From assembly GCA_964363695.1 (NCBI GenBank), contig CAYIJI010000001.1:1-33942 (forward strand): a stretch of DNA of 33,942 bases, read 5' to 3'. This document shows, in pieces, positions 3,640 to 32,584 of the stretch. The translations under genes and the position numbers were made by a program. The notes beneath the pieces were generated by a model, which worked only from the letters and a program-made list of their open reading frames with translations, searched no databases and was not told the origin of the DNA. Within the stretch, counting starts at the first letter, position 1; each line of letters starts with the position of its first letter. Source of the stretch: an uncultured Candidatus Saccharibacteria bacterium. GTDB lineage: Bacteria > Patescibacteriota > UBA1384 > XYA2-FULL-43-10 > 1-14-0-10-43-13.

Positions 3640-4437
3640 ATGAAAAACTATTTTGACGGTAAGAAGATTAGAGATGAAATAATCGAAGATCTGAAAAATA
3701 AAATAGAAAAAATGGAGCGGAAGCCTGGCTTAGCTGTTTTTTTGATTGGAAATGATGTTATTTGCGAGAGGTATGTTGCTCTTAAAAAGCGAATTGCTGA
3801 GAAAATCGGCATTTTTGTAAGAGTCTACAAATTCGATGAAAATAGCGAGCAGCAAGAAATTATTTCTAAAATAAAAGAGCTAAACACTGATAATACAATC
3901 GATGGAATAATGGTCCAAATTCCTATCCCAAAAAACTTTGATAAGTATGAAATTATTAATGCTATTAGTCCGGAGAAAGACATTGATGGATTGCGCTTTT
4001 GTGCGGGATTTCACTCTCATTTTACTCCGCCAGTCGTTCTTGCAATATTAAAAGCAATTGAGTTAGCGAATAAGGATATAGAAGAATGCAAAGTTTTGGT
4101 GGTTGGCAGAGGTTTACTAGTGGGCTGGCCGGTGGCTCAGTGTATGGAAGAGGCGGTTAAGGGTCTTGTAATTGCTGATGGGAGCACAAAGAACTTGGAA
4201 AATCTTACGGAAGATGCCGATGTGATTATCTCTGCCACCGGTAAATCGAATTTGATTAAACCAGATATGATTAAAGAAGGCGCCGTTCTAATTGATGCCG
4301 GCACTTCGGAGGTTGGGGGAGAGCTTTTGGGCGACATCGATCCAGAGTCTTATAAGAGAGCCTCGTTCTACACGCCGGTTCCGGGTGGAATTGGCCCTGT
4401 TACAGTGGCAATGTTATTGAAGAATTTAGTTGGATAG
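3640..4437 (+). CDS. folD: Bifunctional methylenetetrahydrofolate dehydrogenase/cyclohydrolase
   Basis: DGIMVQIPIP, KDIDGL, VVGRGLLVGWP, ATGKSNLIK and VPGGIGPVTVAMLLKN are FolD hallmarks. Confidence 0.85.
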   Translation: MKNYFDGKKIRDEIIEDLKNKIEKMERKPGLAVFLIGNDVICERYVALKKRIAEKIGIFVRVYKFDENSEQQEIISKIKELNTDNTIDGIMVQIPIPKNFDKYEIINAISPEKDIDGLRFCAGFHSHFTPPVVLAILKAIELANKDIEECKVLVVGRGLLVGWPVAQCMEEAVKGLVIADGSTKNLENLTEDADVIISATGKSNLIKPDMIKEGAVLIDAGTSEVGGELLGDIDPESYKRASFYTPVPGGIGPVTVAMLLKNLVG

Positions 4438-4490: not shown

Positions 4491-4519
4491 TTGACAGGTT
4501 GGTAATTTTAATGTATAAT
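4491..4519 (+). promoter_or_regulatory. Consensus sigma70-type promoter of the DGR target gene
   Basis: TTGACA (4491-4496), an exact 17-nt spacer, then TATAAT (4514-4519). Confidence 0.65.
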
Positions 4520-4680
4520 AGCGCCCAGTTTAGTAATTTGACAATTCCTTTCCTTGGAGCTTAATTGGCTAGCTCACGTAAGATAGCCGGTTAAGCTCTA
4601 AGGAGCAAGAAAGGCGCAATAAATCCTCGAGCATTTGTATTTTACGATTTGCCGAGTAGCGCACGAAGGAGACGGTCGGA

Positions 4681-5604
4681 ATGGCTAAGACCATCGGAAC
4701 TGCAGGCTTCACAGAAATAACGCATGAAAAGTGCGGCAAGGGGATCGCTAGGGTAATAGACGGCGTCCCGCATGTTGAGTGCACACGGAGAGGTTGCCGA
4801 GAATGGGTGCCTCTTCATGGTTTGGTCCAGATGAGTGATATTCAGCAAGTGCTGGCTCTCATAGGATCAGGTCAGGTTTCGTTAGCCGATATTATGGCGC
4901 TAGCAGACCCGTTCACCGCTTATCGGCAGATCGATGGGCTATTCGTGGTTGGCGCGGCGGAGCTGGATCAGCTTTTCCGAACGGAATCTAATCCGCTTGG
5001 ACTCGATTCTGGCTGGGTTCCACAAATACCTGTTCCGAGTGATTTGGATCAGTGGATCCGTTCTGAGCAGTGGCGCACAGACAAGAATTGGCAGACTCGT
5101 GCTGCTCTTGTGTTGGTGCCACCAAAGATCGGGGATTTCCCATCCAGCCTGGTCAGCCAAAGCTATCTGCTTGGAGTGAGCCATGATGGAATCCCCCCTG
5201 GAATTATCCGCTCAGATGTTCTCTGGAGCAACTACTTCGTCCAGCCTAAATACAACTGGGCGATGGAACCGGCAACAGCAGAGTGGCAATGGATGCTCGT
5301 ATACGAGCATCCAGTCTTCATCACGCAGAAGGATTGGGACAAGCAACAGGGAATCGCGCGACAATATAGGATGCCGATTTCCACTGTTGCGCAAGACGCA
5401 TGGGGACTTAATATGGTTCATGCCGTTTACGGTGTTAGCCTCCGTTTGTCAACGTGGTCACGGACAAGTTCCCTCTGCGATGGCAACCCGCTCTACGTCC
5501 GCTCGATCGACGGCAGCGTCAGCGTCTATCAGGGCTGGGATCCTCGGTTTGCGGGCGGCGTTGTGGCGGCTTCCGTCCAGGGAGTTCCAGCACTTGATTG
5601 TTGA
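4681..5604 (+). CDS. DGR variable (target) protein; the C-terminal 38 codons are the variable repeat
   Basis: 307 aa, with AAGGAG 9 nt before the ATG. The 3' end (5472-5585) is the VR. I recognised no signal peptide or TM segment. The N-terminus has a Cys/His-rich stretch (EKCGKG...HVECTRRGC). A C-type-lectin-like fold of the VR domain is expected from DGR biology but cannot be verified by eye. Confidence 0.85.
   Translation: MAKTIGTAGFTEITHEKCGKGIARVIDGVPHVECTRRGCREWVPLHGLVQMSDIQQVLALIGSGQVSLADIMALADPFTAYRQIDGLFVVGAAELDQLFRTESNPLGLDSGWVPQIPVPSDLDQWIRSEQWRTDKNWQTRAALVLVPPKIGDFPSSLVSQSYLLGVSHDGIPPGIIRSDVLWSNYFVQPKYNWAMEPATAEWQWMLVYEHPVFITQKDWDKQQGIARQYRMPISTVAQDAWGLNMVHAVYGVSLRLSTWSRTSSLCDGNPLYVRSIDGSVSVYQGWDPRFAGGVVAASVQGVPALDC
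5472..5585 (+). repeat. DGR variable repeat (VR)
   Basis: Aligns without gaps to 5932-6045 at a constant 460-nt offset. There are 19 mismatches, all where the TR has A. The 3' 24 nt (tgtggcggcttccgtccagggagt) are identical to the TR and GC-rich, as for an IMH (initiation of mutagenic homing). Confidence 0.9.
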
Positions 5605-5633
5605 TAAATTGGCCTTTTTGGGTCTTGATCTTC

Positions 5634-5655
5634 GGGGTCGGCGGTAGCCGACCCC
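5634..5655 (+). terminator. GC-rich hairpin downstream of the VR (DGR homing-associated stem-loop and/or terminator)
   Basis: ggggtcggc / ggta loop / gccgacccc forms a 9-bp perfect stem 48 nt after the VR end, followed by attttc. Confidence 0.55.
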
Positions 5656-5931
5656 ATTTTCATGCCCTAGATTTGTCTTTTTTGTAATTTTTGTTATTAT
5701 ATATTCGAAAGTAGGTAGAGATTTTCGATTTACGAATCGGGAGCGCCGAAATCTCTGAACTTCAATTAGTCAGAATCTGTTAATCCAAGGATTAATGGAG
5801 AGAATGAACGAATGTTTGGAAACTCCGTGCCTGTTTTCTAGAGTAGGTGTTCGGGTTAACCGAGCTACTATCAAATAAAATACAGCTCCAAGAGAAATCA
5901 AAGAGCAGTGCACATAGGTGGAAAATAGGCT

Positions 5932-6045
5932 AATCTACGATGGCAACCCGCTCAACGTCAACTCGAACGACGACAGCGTCAACGTCAATCAGAACTGGAA
6001 TCCTCAGAATGCGGACGACGATGTGGCGGCTTCCGTCCAGGGAGT
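5932..6045 (+). repeat. DGR template repeat (TR), non-coding
   Basis: Adenine-rich counterpart of the VR. In the VR frame it reads AAC/AAT/GAC codons at the variable positions. It lies 30 nt upstream of the RT start. Confidence 0.9.
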
Positions 6046-6075
6046 CTCTAAACTATACAAAAGCATCCTAAAAAG

Positions 6076-7203
6076 ATGCTTTTGTTGCTTTTAACCAACC
6101 GCCTAACATTCTGCCGATTTCTTGCAGTTTTTCTTCCAGAAAAAGATATTTTTTCACAGATTATTAGTATTGAAAACTTATACGAAAGTTGGGCTGAATT
6201 TAAATACGGCAAGCGCAAGAAAGGCGATGTCCAGGCTTTTGAAAGAAAACTGGAAGATAATTTGTTCTCTTTGCGATACGATTTAAAGAATAGAACGTAC
6301 CGACATTCGGATTATACCTCATTTTACATCACTGATCCAAAATTACGCCATATTCACAAAGCGGAAGTACGAGATCGGATTGCGCATCATGCGATTTATA
6401 GAATTTTATACACAATATTTGATAAAGGTTTTATTTACGATTCGTATTCTTGCCGATTAGAAAAAGGCACGCACAAAGCTGTTGCTCGACTTAAAAATTT
6501 TACTCAAAAAGTTAGCAAAAACAATACAATTCCCTGTTATGCTTTGAAATGCGACGTTAAGAAATTTTTTGATTCGGTTGACCATGAAATTTTGCTTTCG
6601 TTAATCAAGAGAAAAATTGCTGATCCAGATACATTATTGTTGCTTGAAGAGATTATCGAAAGTTTTAGTAAACCAACTAAAACCGCTGGTGTTCAGCTAG
6701 ATCTTTTTGATTTGCATCGCGCAAATCGAGAGAGAGAGAGAGAGAGAGAGCTGCAGCCTTCGGCCGCTAGCGGTAAGGGAATCCCAATTGGCAATTTAAC
6801 CAGTCAACTTTTTGCCAATATATACATGAACGAACTTGATCAATTTGTTAAACACAAGCTGAAGATTAAATACTATCTTCGCTATTGCGATGATTTTATT
6901 ATCCTGGGTAATCAAGAGGAAGAGCTGCATAAAATCGTGGAAAGAATTGGCGAGTTTCTTTTCAATAATTTAAAGCTTTCTTTACATCCTAATAAGGTCT
7001 CAATACGAAAATTGAATCAAGGGGTAGATTTTTTAGGCTACATCGTATTGCCGTATTATACAGTTTTAAGGACAAAAACAAGGAAAAGAATGTTGAAGAA
7101 AGTCAATAAAAAGAATTTGTTTTCATATTTGGGGCTTTTGAAGCATTGTGATGGGTATGAGCAGTCCAGATTGATTCTTGATAAAGTAAAGCAGTGCGAA
7201 TGA
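6076..7203 (+). CDS. DGR reverse transcriptase
   Basis: SYSCRLEKGTHKA, LKCDVKKFFDSVDHEIL, GIPIGNLTSQLFANIYMNELDQF (the DGR-specific I/LGxxxSQ motif), YLRYCDDFIILG (YxDD) and LSLHPNKV...GVDFLGY. Contains an in-frame (GA)11 tract. The start codon is uncertain because the ATG at 6076 lies inside a hairpin. Confidence 0.9.
   Translation: MLLLLLTNRLTFCRFLAVFLPEKDIFSQIISIENLYESWAEFKYGKRKKGDVQAFERKLEDNLFSLRYDLKNRTYRHSDYTSFYITDPKLRHIHKAEVRDRIAHHAIYRILYTIFDKGFIYDSYSCRLEKGTHKAVARLKNFTQKVSKNNTIPCYALKCDVKKFFDSVDHEILLSLIKRKIADPDTLLLLEEIIESFSKPTKTAGVQLDLFDLHRANRERERERELQPSAASGKGIPIGNLTSQLFANIYMNELDQFVKHKLKIKYYLRYCDDFIILGNQEEELHKIVERIGEFLFNNLKLSLHPNKVSIRKLNQGVDFLGYIVLPYYTVLRTKTRKRMLKKVNKKNLFSYLGLLKHCDGYEQSRLILDKVKQCE
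6728..6750 (+). repeat. (GA)11G dinucleotide microsatellite inside the RT gene
   Basis: gagagagagagagagagagagag, translated RERERERE, lies just upstream of the IPIGNLTSQ motif. Confidence 0.95.
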
Positions 7204-7244: not shown

Positions 7245-8507
7245 ATGAAAAATAAAATAAAGAAAATAGTTGATATTCCACCTCACCCAGCCTCTCCTTG
7301 GAAAGGAGAGGAGAAGATTCGAGTAGCTATTGGAATGTCTGGCGGAGTTGATTCTTCTGTTGCGGCAAAAATTCTGAAAGACCAAGGATATGAAGTGATT
7401 GGTTTTATGATGAAGCTTTGGCCTGGGTCTGACCCGTCTGTCTGCGACAGCCGAGGCAAGGACAACGCTTGCTGTGATATTGACGGACTTCAGGATGCAA
7501 AGCGGATTGCGGCAATTTTAGATATTCCATTTTATGTCGTCGACGTAAGGGAGAAATTTAAGAAGGAAGTTGCTGATTATTTTATCGAAGAATATAAGAG
7601 CCTGCGTACTCCAAATCCATGCGTCCGCTGTAATGAGCGAATTAAATTTGGTTGGCTCTTGGACTTTGCCAAACAAACCGGATGCGACTATTTAGCGACT
7701 GGACACTACGCTCGCATAGCGAGCGATTTATCATTTATCAATTCTCATTTCTCATTGAATGAAAAATTATCAAATGACCAAATGAATGAAAAATGGAAAA
7801 TGGTCAATGGAAAATTTCATCTTTTGCGTGGCAAGGATGATAAAAAAGATCAATCATATTTTCTCTATCGCTTGAACCAAGACCAGTTGAAGCATATTAT
7901 TTTTCCAGTAGGCGAATTTATTAAAGAGGAAACGCGGGCTTTGGCCAAAAAGTGGAATTTGCCAGTCCATGAGAAAAAGGAAAGCCAGGAAATATGCTTT
8001 ATACAGGAAAAGGATTACCGTGATTTTTTGAAGAAAAACATTTCTGAAGAGTATTTTAAAGAAGGGGACATTGTTGACATGGACGATAATGTAATCGGAA
8101 AACATCAAGGGCTTATCAATTATACAATCGGGCAGCGTAAAGGCATCGAACAGATATCAGATAACAGATATCTGATAACAGTAGATAAAAGGCCAATGTA
8201 TGTTGTTGGGTTTAATGTAGAAAAGAACCAGTTGATTGTTGGTGAAGATAAGGATATCTATAAAGATGAAATGATTATTGGTGATTTATCATGGGTTCAG
8301 AGTACAGATAACAGAATACAGGTGACAGATAACTTATCTGTGAAAATCAGATACAGGCATCCGGCAGTTAATTGTAGAATTAAGAATACAGATAACAGTA
8401 GACAGATAACAGTAGAGTTTTTTGAGCCGCAGAGAGCAATTACGCCAGGCCAGAGCGCGGTATTCTATTTGGAGGATGAAGTGCTTGGTGGAGGCATAAT
8501 ACAATAA
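7245..8507 (+). CDS. mnmA: tRNA-specific 2-thiouridylase MnmA with several in-frame repeat insertions
   Basis: VAIGMSGGVDSSVAA (PP-loop), NPCVRCN, GHYAR, KDQSYFLY and the C-terminal PGQSAVFY. Confidence 0.9.
   Translation: MKNKIKKIVDIPPHPASPWKGEEKIRVAIGMSGGVDSSVAAKILKDQGYEVIGFMMKLWPGSDPSVCDSRGKDNACCDIDGLQDAKRIAAILDIPFYVVDVREKFKKEVADYFIEEYKSLRTPNPCVRCNERIKFGWLLDFAKQTGCDYLATGHYARIASDLSFINSHFSLNEKLSNDQMNEKWKMVNGKFHLLRGKDDKKDQSYFLYRLNQDQLKHIIFPVGEFIKEETRALAKKWNLPVHEKKESQEICFIQEKDYRDFLKKNISEEYFKEGDIVDMDDNVIGKHQGLINYTIGQRKGIEQISDNRYLITVDKRPMYVVGFNVEKNQLIVGEDKDIYKDEMIIGDLSWVQSTDNRIQVTDNLSVKIRYRHPAVNCRIKNTDNSRQITVEFFEPQRAITPGQSAVFYLEDEVLGGGIIQ
7727..7820 (+). repeat. In-frame AT-rich palindromic repeat in mnmA (TCATTT/AAATGA, CCATTTT/AAAATGG word family)
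   Basis: Encodes LSFINSHFSLNEKLSNDQMNEKWKMVNGKF between the conserved GHYAR and KDQSYF blocks. The same word family fills the intergenic regions 25455-25620 and 25860-25965. Confidence 0.5.
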
Positions 8508-8529: not shown

Positions 8530-10839
8530 ATGGATCTAGAGACTAAAATTCAATACCTATCTGGAGTGGGGCCGAAAATGGCAGCAAAGCTTAATCGGCT
8601 TGGGGTTGAAACGGTTTCGGATCTTATTTTTTATTACCCAAGAACATACAAAGACTTTAGTAATATAACTAGAATCTCCGATATTCGATATTCAAACAAG
8701 GAAGCGATCTCAATTAAGGGGACCATACTTGGCATTGCCAACAAAACAACCAGTCGAAGGCGTTTTACTGTTACTGAAGCCGTAGTAGAAGACGGTACAG
8801 GAAGCCTGAAGGTAATTTGGTTTAACCAGCCTTTTTTAGCTAAAATGCTTACTCCTGGCCGAGAGGTTATTTTAAACGGGAAAGCGCAATACAACTTTTT
8901 TGCGAAAGAAGTGGTAATGGAGTCGCCTGATCGTGCTCTTCGCGAAAGCATCGTTTCGATTTATGGCGAAACAGCAGGGATAACAAGCACCTATATTCGA
9001 AAATTAGTATCAAATATTAAGGATCAAATATCGAGTATTGGAGAATGGCTACCGCAGGAATTGCTACGTCATTCCCGATTTAGTCGGGAATCTACTAATA
9101 GTGATACTATCCTGGATCCCCGCCTTCGCGGGGATGACATAGGAGAGGGCAGGGATGACAATTGTTTGAATTTGCTTTCGATCCAAGAAGCATTAAATAG
9201 CATTCATCAGCCGAAAAACACAGAAATGTTGGCGCAGGCGAAGCGAAGAATTGCTTTTGATGAACTTTTTATGATTGCTTTACGAGCGAATTTAAGCAAG
9301 GAAGAGATTAAAAAAGAGAACGCTCCTATTATTGACATTAATGATAAAAATCTTGCTATCGCTAGATTTTTATCATATTTACCATTCAAGTTAACTGATG
9401 ACCAGAAAAAGTCGGCTTGGCAAATTGTTAAAGATATTGGGCAAAGCAAGCCGATGAATCGTCTTTTGAATGGTGATGTCGGGAGCGGCAAAACTGTTGT
9501 GGCTGCAGTTGCCGCTTTTGTGGCAGTTAAAGCAGGCTTTCGAGTGGCTTTTATGGTACCGACTGAAATCCTTGCACAGCAACATTTTAAAACGTTTTGT
9601 GAATTGTTCGATGTGCAAAATATAAGCATTGGACTTTATACTGCAAATTGCAAAGATAATTTTAAATTTAAAATTCCTGCCTTGCCGGCAGGCAGGTCTA
9701 ATTTAAAATCAATTTCTAATTCTAAAATTTCAAATAAAAGACAAAAAGAAGCTGAAGTGTTGAGTTCTGACATAGTTATTGGTACGCAAGCACTAATTCA
9801 AAAGGATGTTGAGTTAGAGAATATAGGATTGGTGATAGTCGATGAACAACATCGGTTTGGAGTTGTTCAGCGTCAAGCGCTGAAGCAGTTGGGTGTAGGG
9901 AGCGGGGAACAGGGAGAAAAAACTTCAAACTCTCATTCGAGTCTGAGCCTGAGGGCTCTTCCCTCAGAGTCGAAGACCAAACTCCAAATTCCTCACTTCT
10001 TGAGTATGACCGCAACGCCGATTCCCAGAACATTACATTTGGCTTTATTCGGCGACTTGGATATTTCTGTAATTTCACAAAAGCCGGCCGATAGAAAAGA
10101 AATCAAAACGCGGGTAGTTGAGGAAATTAATCGCTATAAGGCATATGAATTTATTCGTAAACAAATTCAATTAGGCAGACAAGCATTTGTTATTTGTCCC
10201 TTGATAGAACAGGTTACAGATAACAGGATACAGATAGCAGAATTATTTGCCGAAGAAAAAAAGACGGTGATTAGCGAATATGAGAAGCTACAAAAAATAT
10301 TTCCTGAGTTCAGAATAGGGATGCTGCATGGACGGCTTAAGGCAAAAGAAAAAGACGCAGTTATGGAGGAATTTTCCGAGAACAAGATTAACATCCTAGT
10401 TAGTACATCGGTGGTCGAGGTTGGGATTGATGTGCCTAACGCGACCGTAATGGCCATCGAAGATGCCGAACGTTTTGGCCTGGCTCAGATTCATCAGTTT
10501 CGAGGACGAGTAGGCAGGGCCGAACATCAGTCGTTTTGCTTTCTGTTTTCCTCTACAATGAATCCTCGCGCAATTAAGCGTTTAAAGGATCTCGAAGTAA
10601 CTTCAGATGGGTTTAAGCTGGCAGAAATTGATCTGGAAACTAGGGGGCCAGGAGCAGTGTTTGGCACTGAGCAATCCGGCCTTTTGGATTTAAAGATGGC
10701 AAACTTTAGTGATAGAATGTTAATCGAACAGGCAAGCTCAGCTGCAAAAGGGATTGTTGAAAACGATCCTGAACTTAAAAGCCACCCTTTTCTTAAAGAA
10801 AAAATCGCTGACTATTTACAGAATAAACACTTGGAGTAG
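8530..10839 (+). CDS. recG: ATP-dependent DNA helicase RecG with at least four in-frame repeat insertions
   Basis: The N-terminal YLSGVGPKMAAKLNRLG...YYPRTY, Walker A GDVGSGKT, DEQHRFGV, TATPIPRT and the QFRGRVGR motif. Confidence 0.9.
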   Translation: MDLETKIQYLSGVGPKMAAKLNRLGVETVSDLIFYYPRTYKDFSNITRISDIRYSNKEAISIKGTILGIANKTTSRRRFTVTEAVVEDGTGSLKVIWFNQPFLAKMLTPGREVILNGKAQYNFFAKEVVMESPDRALRESIVSIYGETAGITSTYIRKLVSNIKDQISSIGEWLPQELLRHSRFSRESTNSDTILDPRLRGDDIGEGRDDNCLNLLSIQEALNSIHQPKNTEMLAQAKRRIAFDELFMIALRANLSKEEIKKENAPIIDINDKNLAIARFLSYLPFKLTDDQKKSAWQIVKDIGQSKPMNRLLNGDVGSGKTVVAAVAAFVAVKAGFRVAFMVPTEILAQQHFKTFCELFDVQNISIGLYTANCKDNFKFKIPALPAGRSNLKSISNSKISNKRQKEAEVLSSDIVIGTQALIQKDVELENIGLVIVDEQHRFGVVQRQALKQLGVGSGEQGEKTSNSHSSLSLRALPSESKTKLQIPHFLSMTATPIPRTLHLALFGDLDISVISQKPADRKEIKTRVVEEINRYKAYEFIRKQIQLGRQAFVICPLIEQVTDNRIQIAELFAEEKKTVISEYEKLQKIFPEFRIGMLHGRLKAKEKDAVMEEFSENKINILVSTSVVEVGIDVPNATVMAIEDAERFGLAQIHQFRGRVGRAEHQSFCFLFSSTMNPRAIKRLKDLEVTSDGFKLAEIDLETRGPGAVFGTEQSGLLDLKMANFSDRMLIEQASSAAKGIVENDPELKSHPFLKEKIADYLQNKHLE
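9068..9160 (+). repeat. In-frame GTCATTCCCG...GGGGATGACA palindromic element in recG
   Basis: gtcattcccgatttagtcgggaat plus ggatccccgccttcgcggggatgaca, the same family as 21386-21410, 21987-22011 and 24251-24275. Translated HSRFSRESTNSDTILDPRLRGDDIGEGRDD. Confidence 0.7.
9657..9735 (+). repeat. In-frame copy in recG of the AATTTTAAATTTAAAATT-type AT-rich repeat with a central palindrome
   Basis: aattttaaatttaaaattcctgccttgccggcaggcaggtctaatttaaaatcaatttctaattctaaaatttc. The same word family occurs in the intergenic regions 1416-1525, 21860-21910 and 24690-24960. Translated NFKFKIPALPAGRSNLKSISNSKIS. Confidence 0.6.
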
Positions 10840-10924: not shown

Positions 10925-11482
10925 ATGACAAGTAAAAATTTAAAATCTGAAGAATTGATTAAAAAACTAGAATCTTTTGTTGAGAAATATCGTTTTTTTG
11001 TAGGAAGCGGGTTAATAGTATTGATTTTAGCAGGGGCTGGGATTTTGTTATGGAGGGAGAATTTTGCGAAGCAAAATCCAGAATCAAGAATCGCGAATCT
11101 TGAATCAAGAATCAGCCGGCTGGAAGCCGACAATAATCAAGAAACAAGAAGCAATAACCAAACAAATTCCAATATTCAAGAAGATAATATCCAAACTGAT
11201 CAAGGGCATGTGGCGGGAGCAAGCAGTCAGAATACAGTCGAACAGATAACAGATAACAGTAAACAGACGACAACCAGTCAGCCAGTGAACAGCAAGATCA
11301 ATATCAATACCGCTTCTGAGTCCGAGCTCGATTCACTTCCTGGGATTGGTCCGACTTATGCTAAGAGAATAATTGAATATCGAAATGCCAACGGCGGGTT
11401 TAAGAGTATTGAAGAAATAAAGAACGTAAAGGGAATCGGCGACAAAACTTTTCTAAAATTCAAGGATAGAATAACGATCTAA
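10925..11482 (+). CDS. comEA: ComEA-type DNA-binding competence protein (N-terminal TM, C-terminal helix-hairpin-helix)
   Basis: TM segment FFVGSGLIVLILAGAGILLW. C-terminus ININTASESELDSLPGIGPTYAKRIIEYRNANGGFKSIEEIKNVKGIGDKTF. Confidence 0.85.
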   Translation: MTSKNLKSEELIKKLESFVEKYRFFVGSGLIVLILAGAGILLWRENFAKQNPESRIANLESRISRLEADNNQETRSNNQTNSNIQEDNIQTDQGHVAGASSQNTVEQITDNSKQTTTSQPVNSKININTASESELDSLPGIGPTYAKRIIEYRNANGGFKSIEEIKNVKGIGDKTFLKFKDRITI

Positions 11483-12056: not shown

Positions 12057-12189
12057 ACAAAGTCGAAGATCGACAAAGGCAAACCAGTCGAAAGGCTGGG
12101 ACGCAAAACTATAGGGCCTTCTTGAGAAATCAAGGGTGGCAGCCAGTTGCCGAAACTTCAAATGAGCTCGGGGTTGAACTTCGTCTTTG
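12057..12189 (+). promoter_or_regulatory. Candidate c-di-GMP-I (GEMM-I) riboswitch
   Basis: The core at 12073-12153 reads ACAAAGGCAAACC-AGUC-GAAA-GGCUGGGACGCAAAAC...CUUGA-GAAA-UCAAG...GGCAGCCAGUUGCCGAA. It matches the conserved GEMM-I blocks as remembered from the Vc2 aptamer (GGCAAACC, a GAAA-capped hairpin, GGGACGCAAAG, AGC.GGGUUACCGA). GGCAA (12078-12082) can pair with UUGCC (12147-12151). Confidence 0.65.
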
Positions 12190-12217: not shown

Positions 12218-12691
12218 ATGAAGAGTCGTATTATTAAAAATCAGTTTCTGGAGCGCGCATTCCGCACACATGTGAGGGTTTCGGAAGATATATTCGGCAG
12301 AGGCCGGATAAATATTCTGAAGCTGCTAGAACAAGAATTTCTTGCTAAGACAGAATCAGAAAACATTATTGAGGTGCAAGAAATTCCTGTTCTAAGGAAT
12401 GGGCATACAATGAAGTGGATACTCGGAGATCACAAGGAAGGCGAAGAAATTTGCCTGACGTGCGATCAGTGCGGATGGGTAAGTTTACCCATTCACATAT
12501 TTAAAGAGTATTTCCACTATTCCTCGTTTAGGGCCAACCTTCCAGAAGATGAGCGGGCACTTATGTCTGCTCGTATGCACTTGACGGAAGTGATGGGAGG
12601 CAAAGTAAGAAGTTATTGTCCACACTGTAAGAAACATTTAATTGCAGTGTTGGACACAAGGAAAGAAGAACGCCAGCCCGAACAGGGCTAG
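12218..12691 (+). CDS. Hypothetical zinc-ribbon protein (CxxCxxC ... CxxC)
   Basis: 157 aa, with AGGGGGA as RBS. Cys clusters are CLTCDQCG and CPHCKKH. No family recognised. Confidence 0.6.
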   Translation: MKSRIIKNQFLERAFRTHVRVSEDIFGRGRINILKLLEQEFLAKTESENIIEVQEIPVLRNGHTMKWILGDHKEGEEICLTCDQCGWVSLPIHIFKEYFHYSSFRANLPEDERALMSARMHLTEVMGGKVRSYCPHCKKHLIAVLDTRKEERQPEQG

Positions 12692-14408: not shown

Positions 14409-14429
14409 AATTTTTAGCCTTTAAGCATA

Positions 14430-14833
14430 TAAGCATTTAAGCAAGCAAGCCCTTTTAAGTTAGTATCTTTGTGATTTTTTCCAGCTGTTTAATAATTTGC
14501 CGACTTCTTCCATTTTAGCTGAAACCTCGTTAAACAATTCTTCTTCGATGTATTTTAAGTCTTTCGATAGTAAAATTTGATATTTAAGTTCTTCAAGCGA
14601 ACCTTCTGCAATTATGTAAAATCTTTTGCTGTCATTTAATGATTTTCGAGCAAATCCTTCAGCAATATTGGATGGAACGGAAACAGCGCATCTTCTAAGT
14701 TGGCTGACTAAATTAAATGTTTCCGATTTTGGTAGATCATTTGTAATTTTGTAAATTACTAAAGCAATTTCATGGGCTTTCTGCCAAGCAATTATTTCTT
14801 TGAATGATTTAATACTCATAGCTTAAATGCTTA
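14430..14833. mobile_element. Inverted-repeat-flanked cassette carrying the four-helix-bundle gene
   Basis: A perfect 13-bp inverted repeat: taagcatttaagc (14430-14442) and gcttaaatgctta (14821-14833). The left copy ends 17 nt outside the gene and the right copy begins 1 nt past its start codon. Each copy lies within a longer TAAGC-word array. Confidence 0.6.
14460..14819 (-). CDS. Four-helix-bundle protein (23S rRNA intervening-sequence protein / Avd family)
   Basis: IAWQKAHEIALVIYKITNDLPKSETFNLVSQLRRCAVSVPSNIAEGFARKS...FYIIAEGSLEELKYQILLSKDL matches the TIGR02436/PF05635 pattern. That family includes the DGR accessory protein Avd. Confidence 0.8.
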   Translation of the reverse strand: MSIKSFKEIIAWQKAHEIALVIYKITNDLPKSETFNLVSQLRRCAVSVPSNIAEGFARKSLNDSKRFYIIAEGSLEELKYQILLSKDLKYIEEELFNEVSAKMEEVGKLLNSWKKSQRY

Positions 14834-14838
14834 CCAGC

Positions 14839-31052: not shown

Positions 31053-32584
31053 ACAAGGTAGCTAAAATATTTTCGGCGGCCACAGTTGGGCTGAATTCTT
31101 TTCTTGTTGAAGTTGAGGTCGACATTGGAGCCGGGCTTCCTTCTTTTACTATAGTAGGGCTTCCCGATAAGGCGATTGACGAAAGCAAAGAAAGAATTCG
31201 GGCGGCGATCAAAAATTCCGAAGTCAATTTTCCCCAGCATCGACTTACTATCAATTTGGCGCCGGCCGACGTTAAGAAAGAGGGGCCCAGTTTTGACCTG
31301 CCGATGGCGGTCGGGATATTGCTCGCCGGTGAGCAGCTGGAACAGGTTGCTGAATACAAGAAATCTTTTTTTGTCGGTGAACTTTCACTCAATGGCGAGC
31401 TCCGCCATGTGAATGGAATTTTGCCGATCGTATTATTTGCACTAAAAAATGGCTACGAGCGGGTTTTTTTGCCGGAAGTCAATGCCTACGAGGCATCGCT
31501 CATTACGGGAATTGAAATAGTGCCGGTTAAATCTTTGAAACAGTTGATTTCACATTTAAGGAGCGAAGAAATCATAAAAGCTCATAAGCATGTAAGCAAG
31601 AAAGCAAGTAAGCAGGAAAGCGGAGAATATGATTTTTGCTATGTTGCGGGGCAGGAGCAGGTAAAAAGGGCGCTGGAGATTGCAGCAGCTGGGAATCATA
31701 ATATTCTTTTATCCGGGCCCCCGGGGTCGGGTAAAACTTTACTGGCCCGCAGTATCACAACCATTCTGCCCGACATGGATGAAGAGGAAATGCTCGACGT
31801 TACAAAGATTTATTCAGTTGCAGGGATGTTTAATGGCGACAGGGAAACTTTGATATCAAGGCGGCCGTTTCGTTCTCCACATCATACAACTTCGAGTGTG
31901 GCCTTGATTGGCGGAGGGCAATGGCCTCGGCCCGGAGAAATTAGTCTTTCTCATCGAGGTGTTCTGTTTCTAGATGAATTTCCTGAGTTTCCAAGAAGTG
32001 TGCTAGAAGCGTTGCGTCAGCCGTTGGAAGACGGAGTTGTTACAGTCTCAAGAGCTCAAGGCAGCTTAACCTTTCCGGCGGAATTTTTGTTGGTTGCAGC
32101 GCAAAACCCTTGCCCTTGCGGCTATCAATCTGATCCCGATAAACGGTGCATTTGCTCTCCGATCCAGATAATGCGGTACCAGAAAAAGATTTCCGGTCCG
32201 CTTTTGGATAGAATTGACATCCATATTGAGGTCCCACGGCTTAAGTATGATAAATTGACTAGCAAAAAAGTAGCCGAAGAGTCTAAAAATGTTAAAAAAA
32301 GAGTTCAAGAGGCGAGGGATATCCAAGCCAAGAGGTTTAAAGGTTTGAAAACAAAGGCGAATTCAGGGATCAGCGCACGGGAAATAAAAGAATTCTGTAA
32401 ATTAGACAAGGAAGCGGAGAAGATCATCGCAAATGCGGTTGAGCAGATGAAGCTTTCTGCTCGGGTTTACCATCGTCTATTGAAAATCGCCCGAACAATT
32501 GCCGACCTAGAAAAAACGGAAAATATTCAAGCGAACCATGTTGCGGAAGCCCTCCAATATAGACCTAAAGAGAAAGTTTATTAA
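31049..32584 (+). CDS. comM: Mg-chelatase-like ATPase ComM/YifB
   Basis: The N-terminal Lon-protease-like part (GLPSFTIVGLPDKAIDESKERI), Walker A GPPGSGKT, Walker B VLFLDE, a Zn-ribbon-like CPCGY...CIC and the C-terminal HVAEALQYR. Apparent TTG start. Contains an in-frame TAAGC array at 31577-31621 (KAHKHVSKKASKQES). Confidence 0.9.
   Translation: MNKVAKIFSAATVGLNSFLVEVEVDIGAGLPSFTIVGLPDKAIDESKERIRAAIKNSEVNFPQHRLTINLAPADVKKEGPSFDLPMAVGILLAGEQLEQVAEYKKSFFVGELSLNGELRHVNGILPIVLFALKNGYERVFLPEVNAYEASLITGIEIVPVKSLKQLISHLRSEEIIKAHKHVSKKASKQESGEYDFCYVAGQEQVKRALEIAAAGNHNILLSGPPGSGKTLLARSITTILPDMDEEEMLDVTKIYSVAGMFNGDRETLISRRPFRSPHHTTSSVALIGGGQWPRPGEISLSHRGVLFLDEFPEFPRSVLEALRQPLEDGVVTVSRAQGSLTFPAEFLLVAAQNPCPCGYQSDPDKRCICSPIQIMRYQKKISGPLLDRIDIHIEVPRLKYDKLTSKKVAEESKNVKKRVQEARDIQAKRFKGLKTKANSGISAREIKEFCKLDKEAEKIIANAVEQMKLSARVYHRLLKIARTIADLEKTENIQANHVAEALQYRPKEKVY

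Follow-up and report, generated by a model that had tools for sequence, protein, structure and literature searches.

Diversity-generating retroelements (DGRs) of the Candidate Phyla Radiation (CPR) belong in 90% of the cases to architecture B3, in which the template region (TR) is followed by the accessory gene avd and by the reverse transcriptase (RT) gene in the order TR-(avd)-RT, and 29% of the catalogued DGRs are devoid of any accessory gene (Wu et al. 2018, PMC5758913). In the DGR of BPP-1, Avd and the RNA flanking the TR are needed for the synthesis of complementary DNA (cDNA; bioRxiv 10.1101/2023.10.23.563531). Here we describe a DGR of an uncultured Candidatus Saccharibacteria bacterium from the groundwater of the Hainich aquifer (well H52). 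The window, i.e., the whole stretch of DNA that was analysed, comprises 33,942 nt (GCA_964363695.1, contig CAYIJI010000001.1, positions 1-33,942, forward strand). The cassette lies between folD (3640-4437) and mnmA (7245-8507), and these Pfam matches agree with the location proposed in a first-pass annotation of the DNA. It can be assigned to the known B3 class of CPR DGRs, of which it is an ordinary representative with an unclassified target; three features go beyond this class, namely a remnant of avd, a covarying RNA that is located upstream of the TR and pairs with its end, and, most notably, a polymorphic frame-shifting repeat within the RT. Taken together, the region is probably a chromosomal DGR of the B3 lineage of Patescibacteria (CPR) that has been disabled or weakened and that carries a slippage-prone tract in its RT.

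The comparison is based on 160 loci with 46-66% identity, which were retrieved from metagenome and GTDB genome contigs with the RT as query. Their hosts are nearly all Patescibacteria represented by metagenome-assembled genomes (MAGs), many of them from groundwater. The strain of the window itself is also represented by L001 (H52, 0.2-um filter) and L166 (H52, 0.1-um filter), and the 513-bp contig behind P0032 stems from the same well; the contigs of this strain are consensus assemblies with a coverage of ~3. Homologues of the window's target gene are located at L002, L165 and L003. A scan of each locus identified an adenine-biased pair of TR and variable region (VR) with a spacing of 465-575 nt in 82 of 163 related loci.

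The TR (5932-6045, plus strand; 114 nt with 32 adenines) and the VR (5472-5585, plus strand; target codons 264-302) align without gaps at an offset of 460 nt and differ at 19 positions, all of which are adenines of the TR and none C, G or T. Sixteen of the mismatches fall within TR 5941-6045 (5954, 5960, 5961, 5967, 5973, 5982, 5987, 5993, 5994, 5999, 6006, 6008, 6009, 6015, 6018 and 6021), and three more (5932, 5933 and 5937) are included once the TR is extended to 5932. The VR carries G at ten, T at six and C at three of these sites. Accordingly, 19 of the 32 TR adenines differ in the VR and all 82 non-adenine positions are the same; the hypergeometric probability that all 19 differences hit an adenine is 1.7e-13. 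The pair was examined by direct comparison, supplemented with a pattern search for the TR and a codon table for the VR, and a repeat search recovered it independently. A TR pattern in which each A is replaced by N has exactly two matches in the window, the TR and the VR (0 expected from shuffles), and hence no second VR is present in the window. The position-wise comparison thus returned the coordinates of the first-pass annotation, which had reported a gapless pair at a 460-nt offset with mismatches confined to TR adenines, and not a single mismatch at a non-adenine TR position exists in the 114-nt alignment.

Read in the frame of the target, the TR contains ten AAC/AAT codons as well as GAC, GAT and CAG, and the corresponding VR residues are Y, R, I, G, S, Y, G, D, R, F, G, G and V. 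The codon table is in accordance with the AAY-codon design and the residues listed at first pass. A total of 23 TR codons contain adenine, from which ~6e17 peptides are reachable and none of which can be turned into a stop by adenine mutagenesis. The TR is non-coding and ends 30 nt before the RT open reading frame (ORF), and the VR forms the 3' end of the 307-codon target ORF. Transfer from TR to VR took place in the past, and the lack of any non-adenine difference between the two copies indicates that the last transfer was recent. The same signature is found in L002, with ~20 TR/VR mismatches that are all located at TR adenines. The VR is the same in the window, L166 and the 513-bp contig, i.e., in three H52 consensus assemblies of coverage ~3, which thus do not show the VR polymorphism predicted at first pass. 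The TR is the same in L001 and differs at one position in L166 (G6025C). This substitution is the sole difference between the window and L166 over 1924 nt; it affects a non-adenine TR site, the homologous site of L002 has a C, and at a coverage of ~3 it may be an error.

The last 24 nt of the VR (5562-5585, plus strand) are GC-rich and the same as TR 6022-6045, as annotated previously, and the homology with the TR ends right after them (6045/5585). In analogy to the BPP-1 DGR, this segment would act as the initiation of mutagenic homing (IMH) site. Downstream, 49 nt past the VR, a GC-rich hairpin with a 9-bp stem and a GGTA loop is followed by a T-rich run (5634-5655, plus strand). It resembles a terminator of the target gene and is a candidate for the DGR target-recognition hairpin; a comparable hairpin is also found 3' of the VR in L002. 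A candidate IMH/IMH* pair would comprise the GC-rich 24-nt end and the post-VR hairpin, yet a different hairpin also follows the TR.

The RT is encoded by an ORF of 375 aa (6076-7203, plus strand; Pfam RVT_1, 1e-22), whose homology to related RTs begins at ~6154. It contains the motifs PIGNLTSQ (motif 4) and YCDD, in agreement with the DGR-specific IGNLTSQ and YxDD that had been noted before. Its best match in the PDB is 8ub7_A, a 328-aa "reverse transcriptase" (E 6.5e-44), and the structures of other RTs (group II, retron-type, Drt, Cas-fused) match with E >= 8e-17. We take 8ub7 to be the bRT of Bordetella phage BPP-1, judging from its length and sequence and not from its title. These motifs and matches identify the RT as DGR type and bRT-like.

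The RT ORF harbors a (GA)11.5 microsatellite (6728-6750, plus strand), which is read as RERERERE and represents the sole dinucleotide repeat of the window. It is part of an insertion of ~35 aa relative to 8ub7 that is located just before motif 4 (GIPIGNLTSQ). A gain or loss of one GA unit truncates the RT, and both states exist in the source aquifer. Over 922 nt the only difference between L001 and the window is a (GA)10 tract (L001 853-872), and the RT of L001 is truncated at residue 230; L166 encodes the full 375-aa RT. Another example stems from well H51: the RT is intact in L071 (replicate 1, coverage 19), whose tract is (GA)10, but split in L167 (replicate 3, coverage 9) and in the MAG contig L168, both with (GA)9; apart from this single GA unit there are 0 mismatches in 5582 nt. 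A frame-shifting tract whose length differs between otherwise identical genomes, as is typical of phase-variable loci, is hence present in window/L001 and in L071/L167/L168. Sixteen distinct loci share a GA tract of 5-23 units at this site of the RT, and it is in frame in 13 of them; most RTs of the clade have only a loop of 4-13 aa there. L002 and L165 are each out of frame by exactly one unit ((GA)9.5 in L165), and L054 has further stops. Frameshifted RTs were found in 3 of 17 loci with a GA tract and in 0 of 139 tract-free loci (Fisher p 0.001).

Several smaller observations concern the same gene. In L054 an extra insert of ~110 nt with four in-frame stops (1100-1300) separates motif 3 from the (GA)11 tract. 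Behind many of the GA tracts a short GC hairpin is found, whose loop is CUUCG or CUGCG (window 6750-6775; L086, L102, L008, L009), and a shared GCCTTCGGC core behind the tracts is read in different frames among the loci, which suggests a constraint at the nucleotide level. Lone in-frame stops also interrupt full-length RTs that lack a GA tract (L025 123, L028 4111, L131 957, L150 4489, L105 4354, L138 4066, L044 4975); these are seven RTs if L028, L029 and L031 are counted once, and L025 and L028 have a TAG at the same RT codon. An alternative genetic code does not explain them, because TAG, TGA and TAA are all used.

Our repeat census of all loci (1.07 Mb) revealed 35 dinucleotide tracts of at least seven units, of which 34 are located inside avd or RT. 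In 17 loci an (AC)n tract encoding (HT)n follows a short conserved leader (M..KDN/I) at the start of avd and is in frame with the Avd body in five of them. A C9-C14 run at avd codons ~5-8 was found in 42 further loci from AT-rich genomes, 16 in frame and 26 out of frame, and the body of ~110 codons is still open in 24 of the 26 out-of-frame copies. Altogether ~36% of the tract-bearing avd copies (~60 loci) are in frame, as predicted for random phase, and the ATG and leader of avd are conserved in both frame states. Daviesbacteria Avd proteins that are otherwise identical occur with (HT)2, (HT)3 and (HT)4. In the DGR core the density of mononucleotide repeats is 0.23 per kb (flanks 0.02), of dinucleotide repeats 0.22 (flanks 0.01), of trinucleotide repeats 0 (flanks 0.01) and of tetranucleotide repeats 0.04 (flanks 0.04). 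The enrichment is confined to frame-shifting classes and amounts to 11-18 times in avd and RT; a frame-shifting tract is present in ~76 of ~148 distinct loci. On the plus strand, examples appear as G9-14 ~35-50 nt before the RT (L052, L006, L116) and as (GT)7-14 (L010, L014, L042, L097).

This pattern is that of contingency loci: tracts at the 5' end of an ORF, about one third of them in frame, maintenance of the downstream ORFs and length polymorphism within populations. We therefore lean, by a modest degree, towards the conclusion that the B3-type DGR machinery of Patescibacteria is under microsatellite phase variation, with Avd or RT being switched stochastically and hypermutation occurring in a subpopulation only. 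Such a switch would be reversible and may have an adaptive value. A full-text search of the literature, which excluded Paul et al. 2017, found no link between DGRs and repeat-mediated switching.

The alternative that fares best denies the switch: (GA)n in the RT and poly-C or (AC)n in the avd of relatives would be mutational hot spots that a surface loop or an N-terminal tail tolerates, and the out-of-frame copies dying DGRs or errors of sequencing and assembly. This is conceivable, since 13 of the 16 RT tracts are in frame, the tract occupies a loop that is absent from 8ub7, the target family shows other decay (the avd deletion of the window, the TR loss of L165, no DGR in L003), and the contigs of the window strain have a coverage of ~3 only. 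We nevertheless regard it as unlikely. Mere hot spots sit poorly with a core in which only the frame-shifting repeats are enriched, with G9-14 at one and the same position (avd codons ~5-8) in 42 loci of AT-rich genomes, and with an open body in 24 of 26 out-of-frame avd copies whose ATG and leader are kept in both states; the in-frame share of avd equals that of random phase, and the contrast between L071 and L167, a single GA unit in 5582 nt, was obtained at coverages of 19 and 9.

The second departure from the B3 plan concerns avd. A tblastn search with the Avd of L002 over the window and the related loci revealed that 146 of 163 related loci possess a complete avd directly before the RT, encoded on the opposite strand. 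Of this gene the window retains only the last 27 codons, KYLFLEEKLQEIGRMLGGWLKATKASF (6071-6151, minus strand; E 7e-8), which match residues 89-115 of the L002 Avd with 67% identity. The alignment of the window with L002 documents homology that extends over the TR, the hairpin behind it and the 3' end of avd, from which it passes straight to RT codon ~8; therefore, ~88 avd codons, the divergent intergenic region between avd and RT and the RT's own start are missing. This is indicative of a deletion of roughly 300 bp that took ~88 of ~115 avd codons together with the intergenic region and the beginning of the RT. Both the 27-codon remnant and the junction recur in the independent contig L001, so that the latter is no assembly artefact of one contig. 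A hidden avd can be discounted for the ~326-nt gap between the stop codon of the target and the TR, which contains no ORF of at least 50 aa on either strand. The sole Avd-like gene of the window (14460-14819, minus strand) encodes a generic four-helix-bundle protein (TIGR02436, 118 bits) that scores 49 bits with the NCBIfam Avd model, whose cut-off is 80. Because the remnant lies in the right place and on the right strand and the intact layout is preserved in 146 relatives, the cassette represents a derivative of B3 and not an intact B3 cassette. The designation of the DGR as "complete" in the first-pass annotation can accordingly not be upheld.

The deletion also bears on the RT start, which had been placed 30 nt after the TR. 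The distance is correct for ATG 6076. Since the deletion took the N-terminal codons of the RT, however, this ATG opens a foreign extension of 26 residues (MLLLLLTNRLTFCRFLAVFLPEKDIF; codons 1-26) that is the antisense of the avd remnant, and it sits in the 3' arm of the hairpin at 6057-6085. Since the RT could be made only from a hairpin-buried ATG, would start with 26 foreign residues and lacks its cognate Avd, the DGR is presumably inactive or weakly active. The cassette has thus probably been disabled or weakened recently, and in our view the VR now represents a frozen product.

A fully functional, complete DGR, in which TR, VR and RT suffice and Avd is dispensable or supplied in trans, is the rival of this interpretation, and several points weigh in its favor and against ours. 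The RT ORF is intact over all conserved motifs, the catalytic ones included, and an in-frame ATG is still there. Accessory-free DGRs account for 29% of the curated set (PMC5758913), hence activity may be independent of Avd, and the function of Avd might be provided in trans by the four-helix-bundle paralogue 8 kb away (14460-14819) or by an Avd that belongs to a further DGR of the genome. The TR/VR pair is strictly adenine-specific with no other drift; in the absence of a non-adenine mismatch, the last homing event or the deletion is recent. The identity of the VR in three consensus assemblies of ~3x is weak evidence against ongoing variation, and it is from the sequence only that we infer a promoter, a terminator and a role of the RNA in priming. 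Even so, full function appears unlikely. The remnant documents that the lineage had an Avd and lost it, and 146 of 163 relatives keep the gene; the native RT start and its upstream region are gone, and the remaining ATG is located in a hairpin arm. In addition, the paralogue stays under the NCBIfam Avd cut-off, the VR is invariant among the three assemblies (consensus, coverage ~3) and the RT of one assembly (L001) is frameshifted. The weakest alternative, an ordinary tandem-type duplication or gene-conversion tract, accounts for the existence of a direct repeat and nothing further, and is practically negligible in view of 19 of 19 differences on the adenines of one copy (P 1.7e-13), the position of one copy in frame at an ORF end and of the other in non-coding DNA beside an RT, and the recurrence of this arrangement in 82 related loci.

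Directly upstream of the TR, the cassette contains a conserved structured RNA of ~225 nt (5704-5931, plus strand), which comprises at least three covarying helices (regions 5714-5747, 5767-5807 and 5843-5871). Iterated nhmmer searches recovered window 5704-5912 as a conserved element of 94 loci, whose target genes are of many different kinds. In the 56-sequence alignment, RNAalifold predicted 31 pairs in three stem regions, and all 31 exhibit compensatory changes. Paired cells amount to 91.8%, compared with 61.7% in shuffles and 38-52% with slid partners, and the covariation score is 0.84 versus 0.27 in shuffles. A promoter-like site of weaker match (TTGTCT, 16 nt, TATTAT, with an upstream TG; 5673-5700, plus strand) is situated just before the conserved RNA, and a TAnAnT box is found 8-12 nt before helix 1 in many rows of the alignment of the relatives' RNA (A2).

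The upstream RNA is also connected with the TR. Its segment GUUUGGAAACUCC (5814-5826, plus strand) can form a long-range duplex with GGAGUCUCUAAAC (6041-6053, plus strand), which consists of the last 5 nt of the TR and the next 8 nt. The two strands differ widely among loci (e.g., GACAAGAC/GUCUUGUC and UUUAGACAC/GUGUCUAAA), and in 53 loci the complementarity of cognate strands exceeds that of non-cognate ones (Mann-Whitney p 1e-11). The minimum free energy fold of 5704-6095 contains the duplex unprompted (z -2.8). Because the upstream RNA pairs with the TR 3' end and the RNA downstream of it, the TR would be placed in a closed loop. Between the TR and the 3' end of the avd remnant, an 11-bp hairpin followed by TGCTTTT (6057-6085, plus strand) harbors the ATG 6076; homologous post-TR hairpins are present in L002 and L165. 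It has the appearance of a terminator, both of the TR RNA and, read from the opposite strand, of avd. Together with the site at 5673-5700 it would bound an RNA of ~385 nt.

Rfam searches of the window at gathering level yielded nothing in the DGR region. The whole model of RT-16 (RF03019) aligns to 5784-5938, including the conserved AUAAAAUACAG core, with 34.7 bits compared with a gathering score of 50. The motif was matched neither in 17 related loci at gathering level nor in 14 at E <= 0.05. We accordingly do not assign the RNA to RT-16: the score is below the gathering threshold here, and the lead was not borne out in the related loci scanned.

From these elements the following mode of action can be proposed for the lineage. 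Its standard layout comprises a target gene with a 3' VR, a terminator hairpin, the structured RNA, the TR, a second hairpin, avd on the opposite strand and the RT. An RNA of ~385 nt (roughly 5707-6090) would be transcribed, consisting of a structured 5' domain, the looped TR and the 3' hairpin, with the TR loop closed by the 5814-5826/6041-6053 duplex. The RT, normally together with Avd, would copy the TR into cDNA with misincorporation opposite adenines, and the cDNA would replace VR 5472-5585, guided by the shared GC-rich 3' end. Up to 23 codons would thereby be recoded in the C-terminal beta-strands of the 307-aa target protein. The later deletion of ~300 bp would have left the RT with a start at a hairpin-buried ATG, 26 foreign residues and no cognate Avd.

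The target gene (4681-5604, plus strand) encodes a protein of 307 aa, whose last ~38 residues correspond to the VR. A full match to the sigma-70 consensus (TTGACA, 17 nt, TATAAT; 12/12) at 4491-4519 (plus strand), followed by a leader of 160 nt, would be its promoter. The leader contains a long hairpin at window 4545-4605 that is weakly conserved with L002 ~5880-5945 (nhmmer E 1e-4), with apparent compensatory changes. The Shine-Dalgarno region GGAG..ACGGTC..ATG is common to the window, L003 and L165, and L002 has the shorter variant GGAGCGGTC. The target has no match in Pfam or NCBIfam, and none of 42 scanned members of its family contains a Pfam domain. Homologues amount to 16 among 5.8e9 clustered proteins and to 64 clusters at 50% identity among 1.84e9; the target thus belongs to a rare, unannotated protein family. 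A profile search against the PDB retrieved only chance-level capsid matches and no solved relative, and neither a signal peptide nor a membrane segment is evident by eye.

The AlphaFold (AF2) model of the target has a predicted local distance difference test score (pLDDT) of 84 and a predicted template modelling score (pTM) of 0.73. It shows a small beta domain at the N-terminus, which is zinc-ribbon-like and rich in Cys and His, followed by a helical linker and by an alpha/beta domain at the C-terminus with the VR as its last strands. Foldseek found nothing significant for this model in the PDB and BFVD (best E 0.15, to which BFVD adds nothing). The weak matches are mostly C-type-lectin-like domains, many with target-side template modelling (TM) scores of 0.3-0.6 and none of them significant; Mtd (1yu0) has rank 39. 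The GC content of the target gene is conspicuous, with 0.54 compared with 0.40 for the host DNA in the window (4681-5604), 0.61 versus 0.44 in L002 (6001-6936) and 0.55 versus 0.41 in L003 (5934-6833), i.e., 12-17 points above that of the AT-rich host contigs. The excess spans the whole gene beyond the VR, and the RTs of the window and L002 are AT-rich like their hosts.

Decay is also documented in relatives of the target family. In L165 (1200-1320, 2120-2240) the 3' end of the target is joined directly to the 3' flank of the TR, with the hairpin and avd behind it; neither the TR nor the structured RNA is left, apparently owing to recombination between VR and TR. The C-terminus VVSKL of the L165 target is common to the listed full-length members of the 52-member cluster P0004. 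This cluster was considered as a record of VR diversification and rejected, since the lineage lost its TR through VR-TR recombination and the variation can consequently not be mapped to a template. In L003 the target homologue (5934-6833) is located between murG and murC in a cell-wall gene cluster, and no TR, avd or RT is present near it.

Some further features of the window lie outside the cassette. A c-di-GMP-I-GGC riboswitch (12069-12155; 70.9 bits, exceeding the gathering score) is located upstream of the ORF 12218-12691. The four-helix-bundle gene (14460-14819) is framed by inverted arrays of an 8-nt TAAGCAnn repeat (14416-14450 and 14820-14857), which forms additional arrays at three sites (15531-15594, 22331-22370 and 31585-31621). 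A repeat with a 7-nt period, ACAGATA(ACAG), occurs within several ORFs including mnmA and the ORF 8530-10839 (recG by eye), namely at 1784-1801, 2065-2139, 8149-8181, 8298-8333, 8388-8416, 10208-10241 and 11241-11267. It encodes TDNRIQ-like peptides, and ACAGAT is found 23 times on the plus and 8 times on the minus strand, compared with 11 expected per strand.

To the thousands of DGRs known in CPR bacteria the present one adds an unannotated target family and a clear case of decay via the loss of avd. With about half of the clade carrying frame-shifting repeats in avd or RT, and with both frame states in single aquifer populations, a stochastic switching of the mutator becomes a concrete hypothesis on the control of DGR activity in nature, and one that is testable on existing metagenome reads. 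If true, targeted hypermutation would be restricted to a subpopulation, and the VR would stay fixed in most cells. The covarying upstream RNA points to an RNA scaffold of the BPP-1 type that is arranged differently in a CPR lineage, a rearrangement that matters for transplanting or engineering compact CPR DGRs.

Among the known systems, the C-type-lectin-fold proteins of DGRs (Mtd, TvpA and the nanoarchaeal AvpA) share with the predicted model of the target the placement of the VR in the C-terminal strands of an alpha/beta domain; in contrast to them, the target has no significant fold match (best E 0.15) and no sequence relation in Pfam, NCBIfam or PDB, profiles included. The RT-1 to RT-19 motifs, among them RT-16 (RF03019), are likewise structured RNAs beside an RT gene (Weinberg et al. 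2017, PMC5737381), but with 34.7 bits against 50 the RNA of the window, like that of its clade, stays under the Rfam thresholds. With the BPP-1 DGR (mtd, avd, TR, brt) the cassette has in common the adenine-specific transfer, the AAY codons, the GC-rich 3' end, the post-VR hairpin and the I/LGxxxSQ type of motif 4, and the TR of the bRT-Avd ribonucleoprotein is bracketed by a pairing of upstream and downstream RNA as well (bioRxiv 10.1101/2023.10.23.563531). In BPP-1, however, a large structured RNA downstream of the TR (Sp, Rfam RT-10) supplies the primer, whereas the window has its large structured domain upstream and only a short hairpin after the TR; moreover, the cassette is chromosomal and not phage-borne, and its target is not Mtd-like by sequence.

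The closest relatives are the B3 DGRs of CPR and DPANN (Wu et al. 2018, PMC5758913), which share the patescibacterial hosts, the order of target-VR, TR, reverse-strand avd and RT, a VR outside the defined VR classes and a target devoid of known domains. The window differs from them in an avd that is reduced to 27 codons, so that the cassette looks like the accessory-free A1 layout, in an RT start composed of antisense-avd codons and in the (GA)11 tract of the RT. This tract finds its counterpart in contingency loci such as the phase-variable mod methyltransferases (phasevarions) of Neisseria, Haemophilus, Helicobacter and Campylobacter, which likewise have homopolymer or dinucleotide tracts in the first codons or within the ORF, a tract length that varies among near-identical strains, and a mix of in-frame and out-of-frame copies with a preserved downstream ORF. 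In contrast to these loci, the tracts of the Patescibacteria, whose switching would be reversible, reside in the RT and Avd of a targeted hypermutation system, and their hosts are non-pathogenic inhabitants of groundwater.

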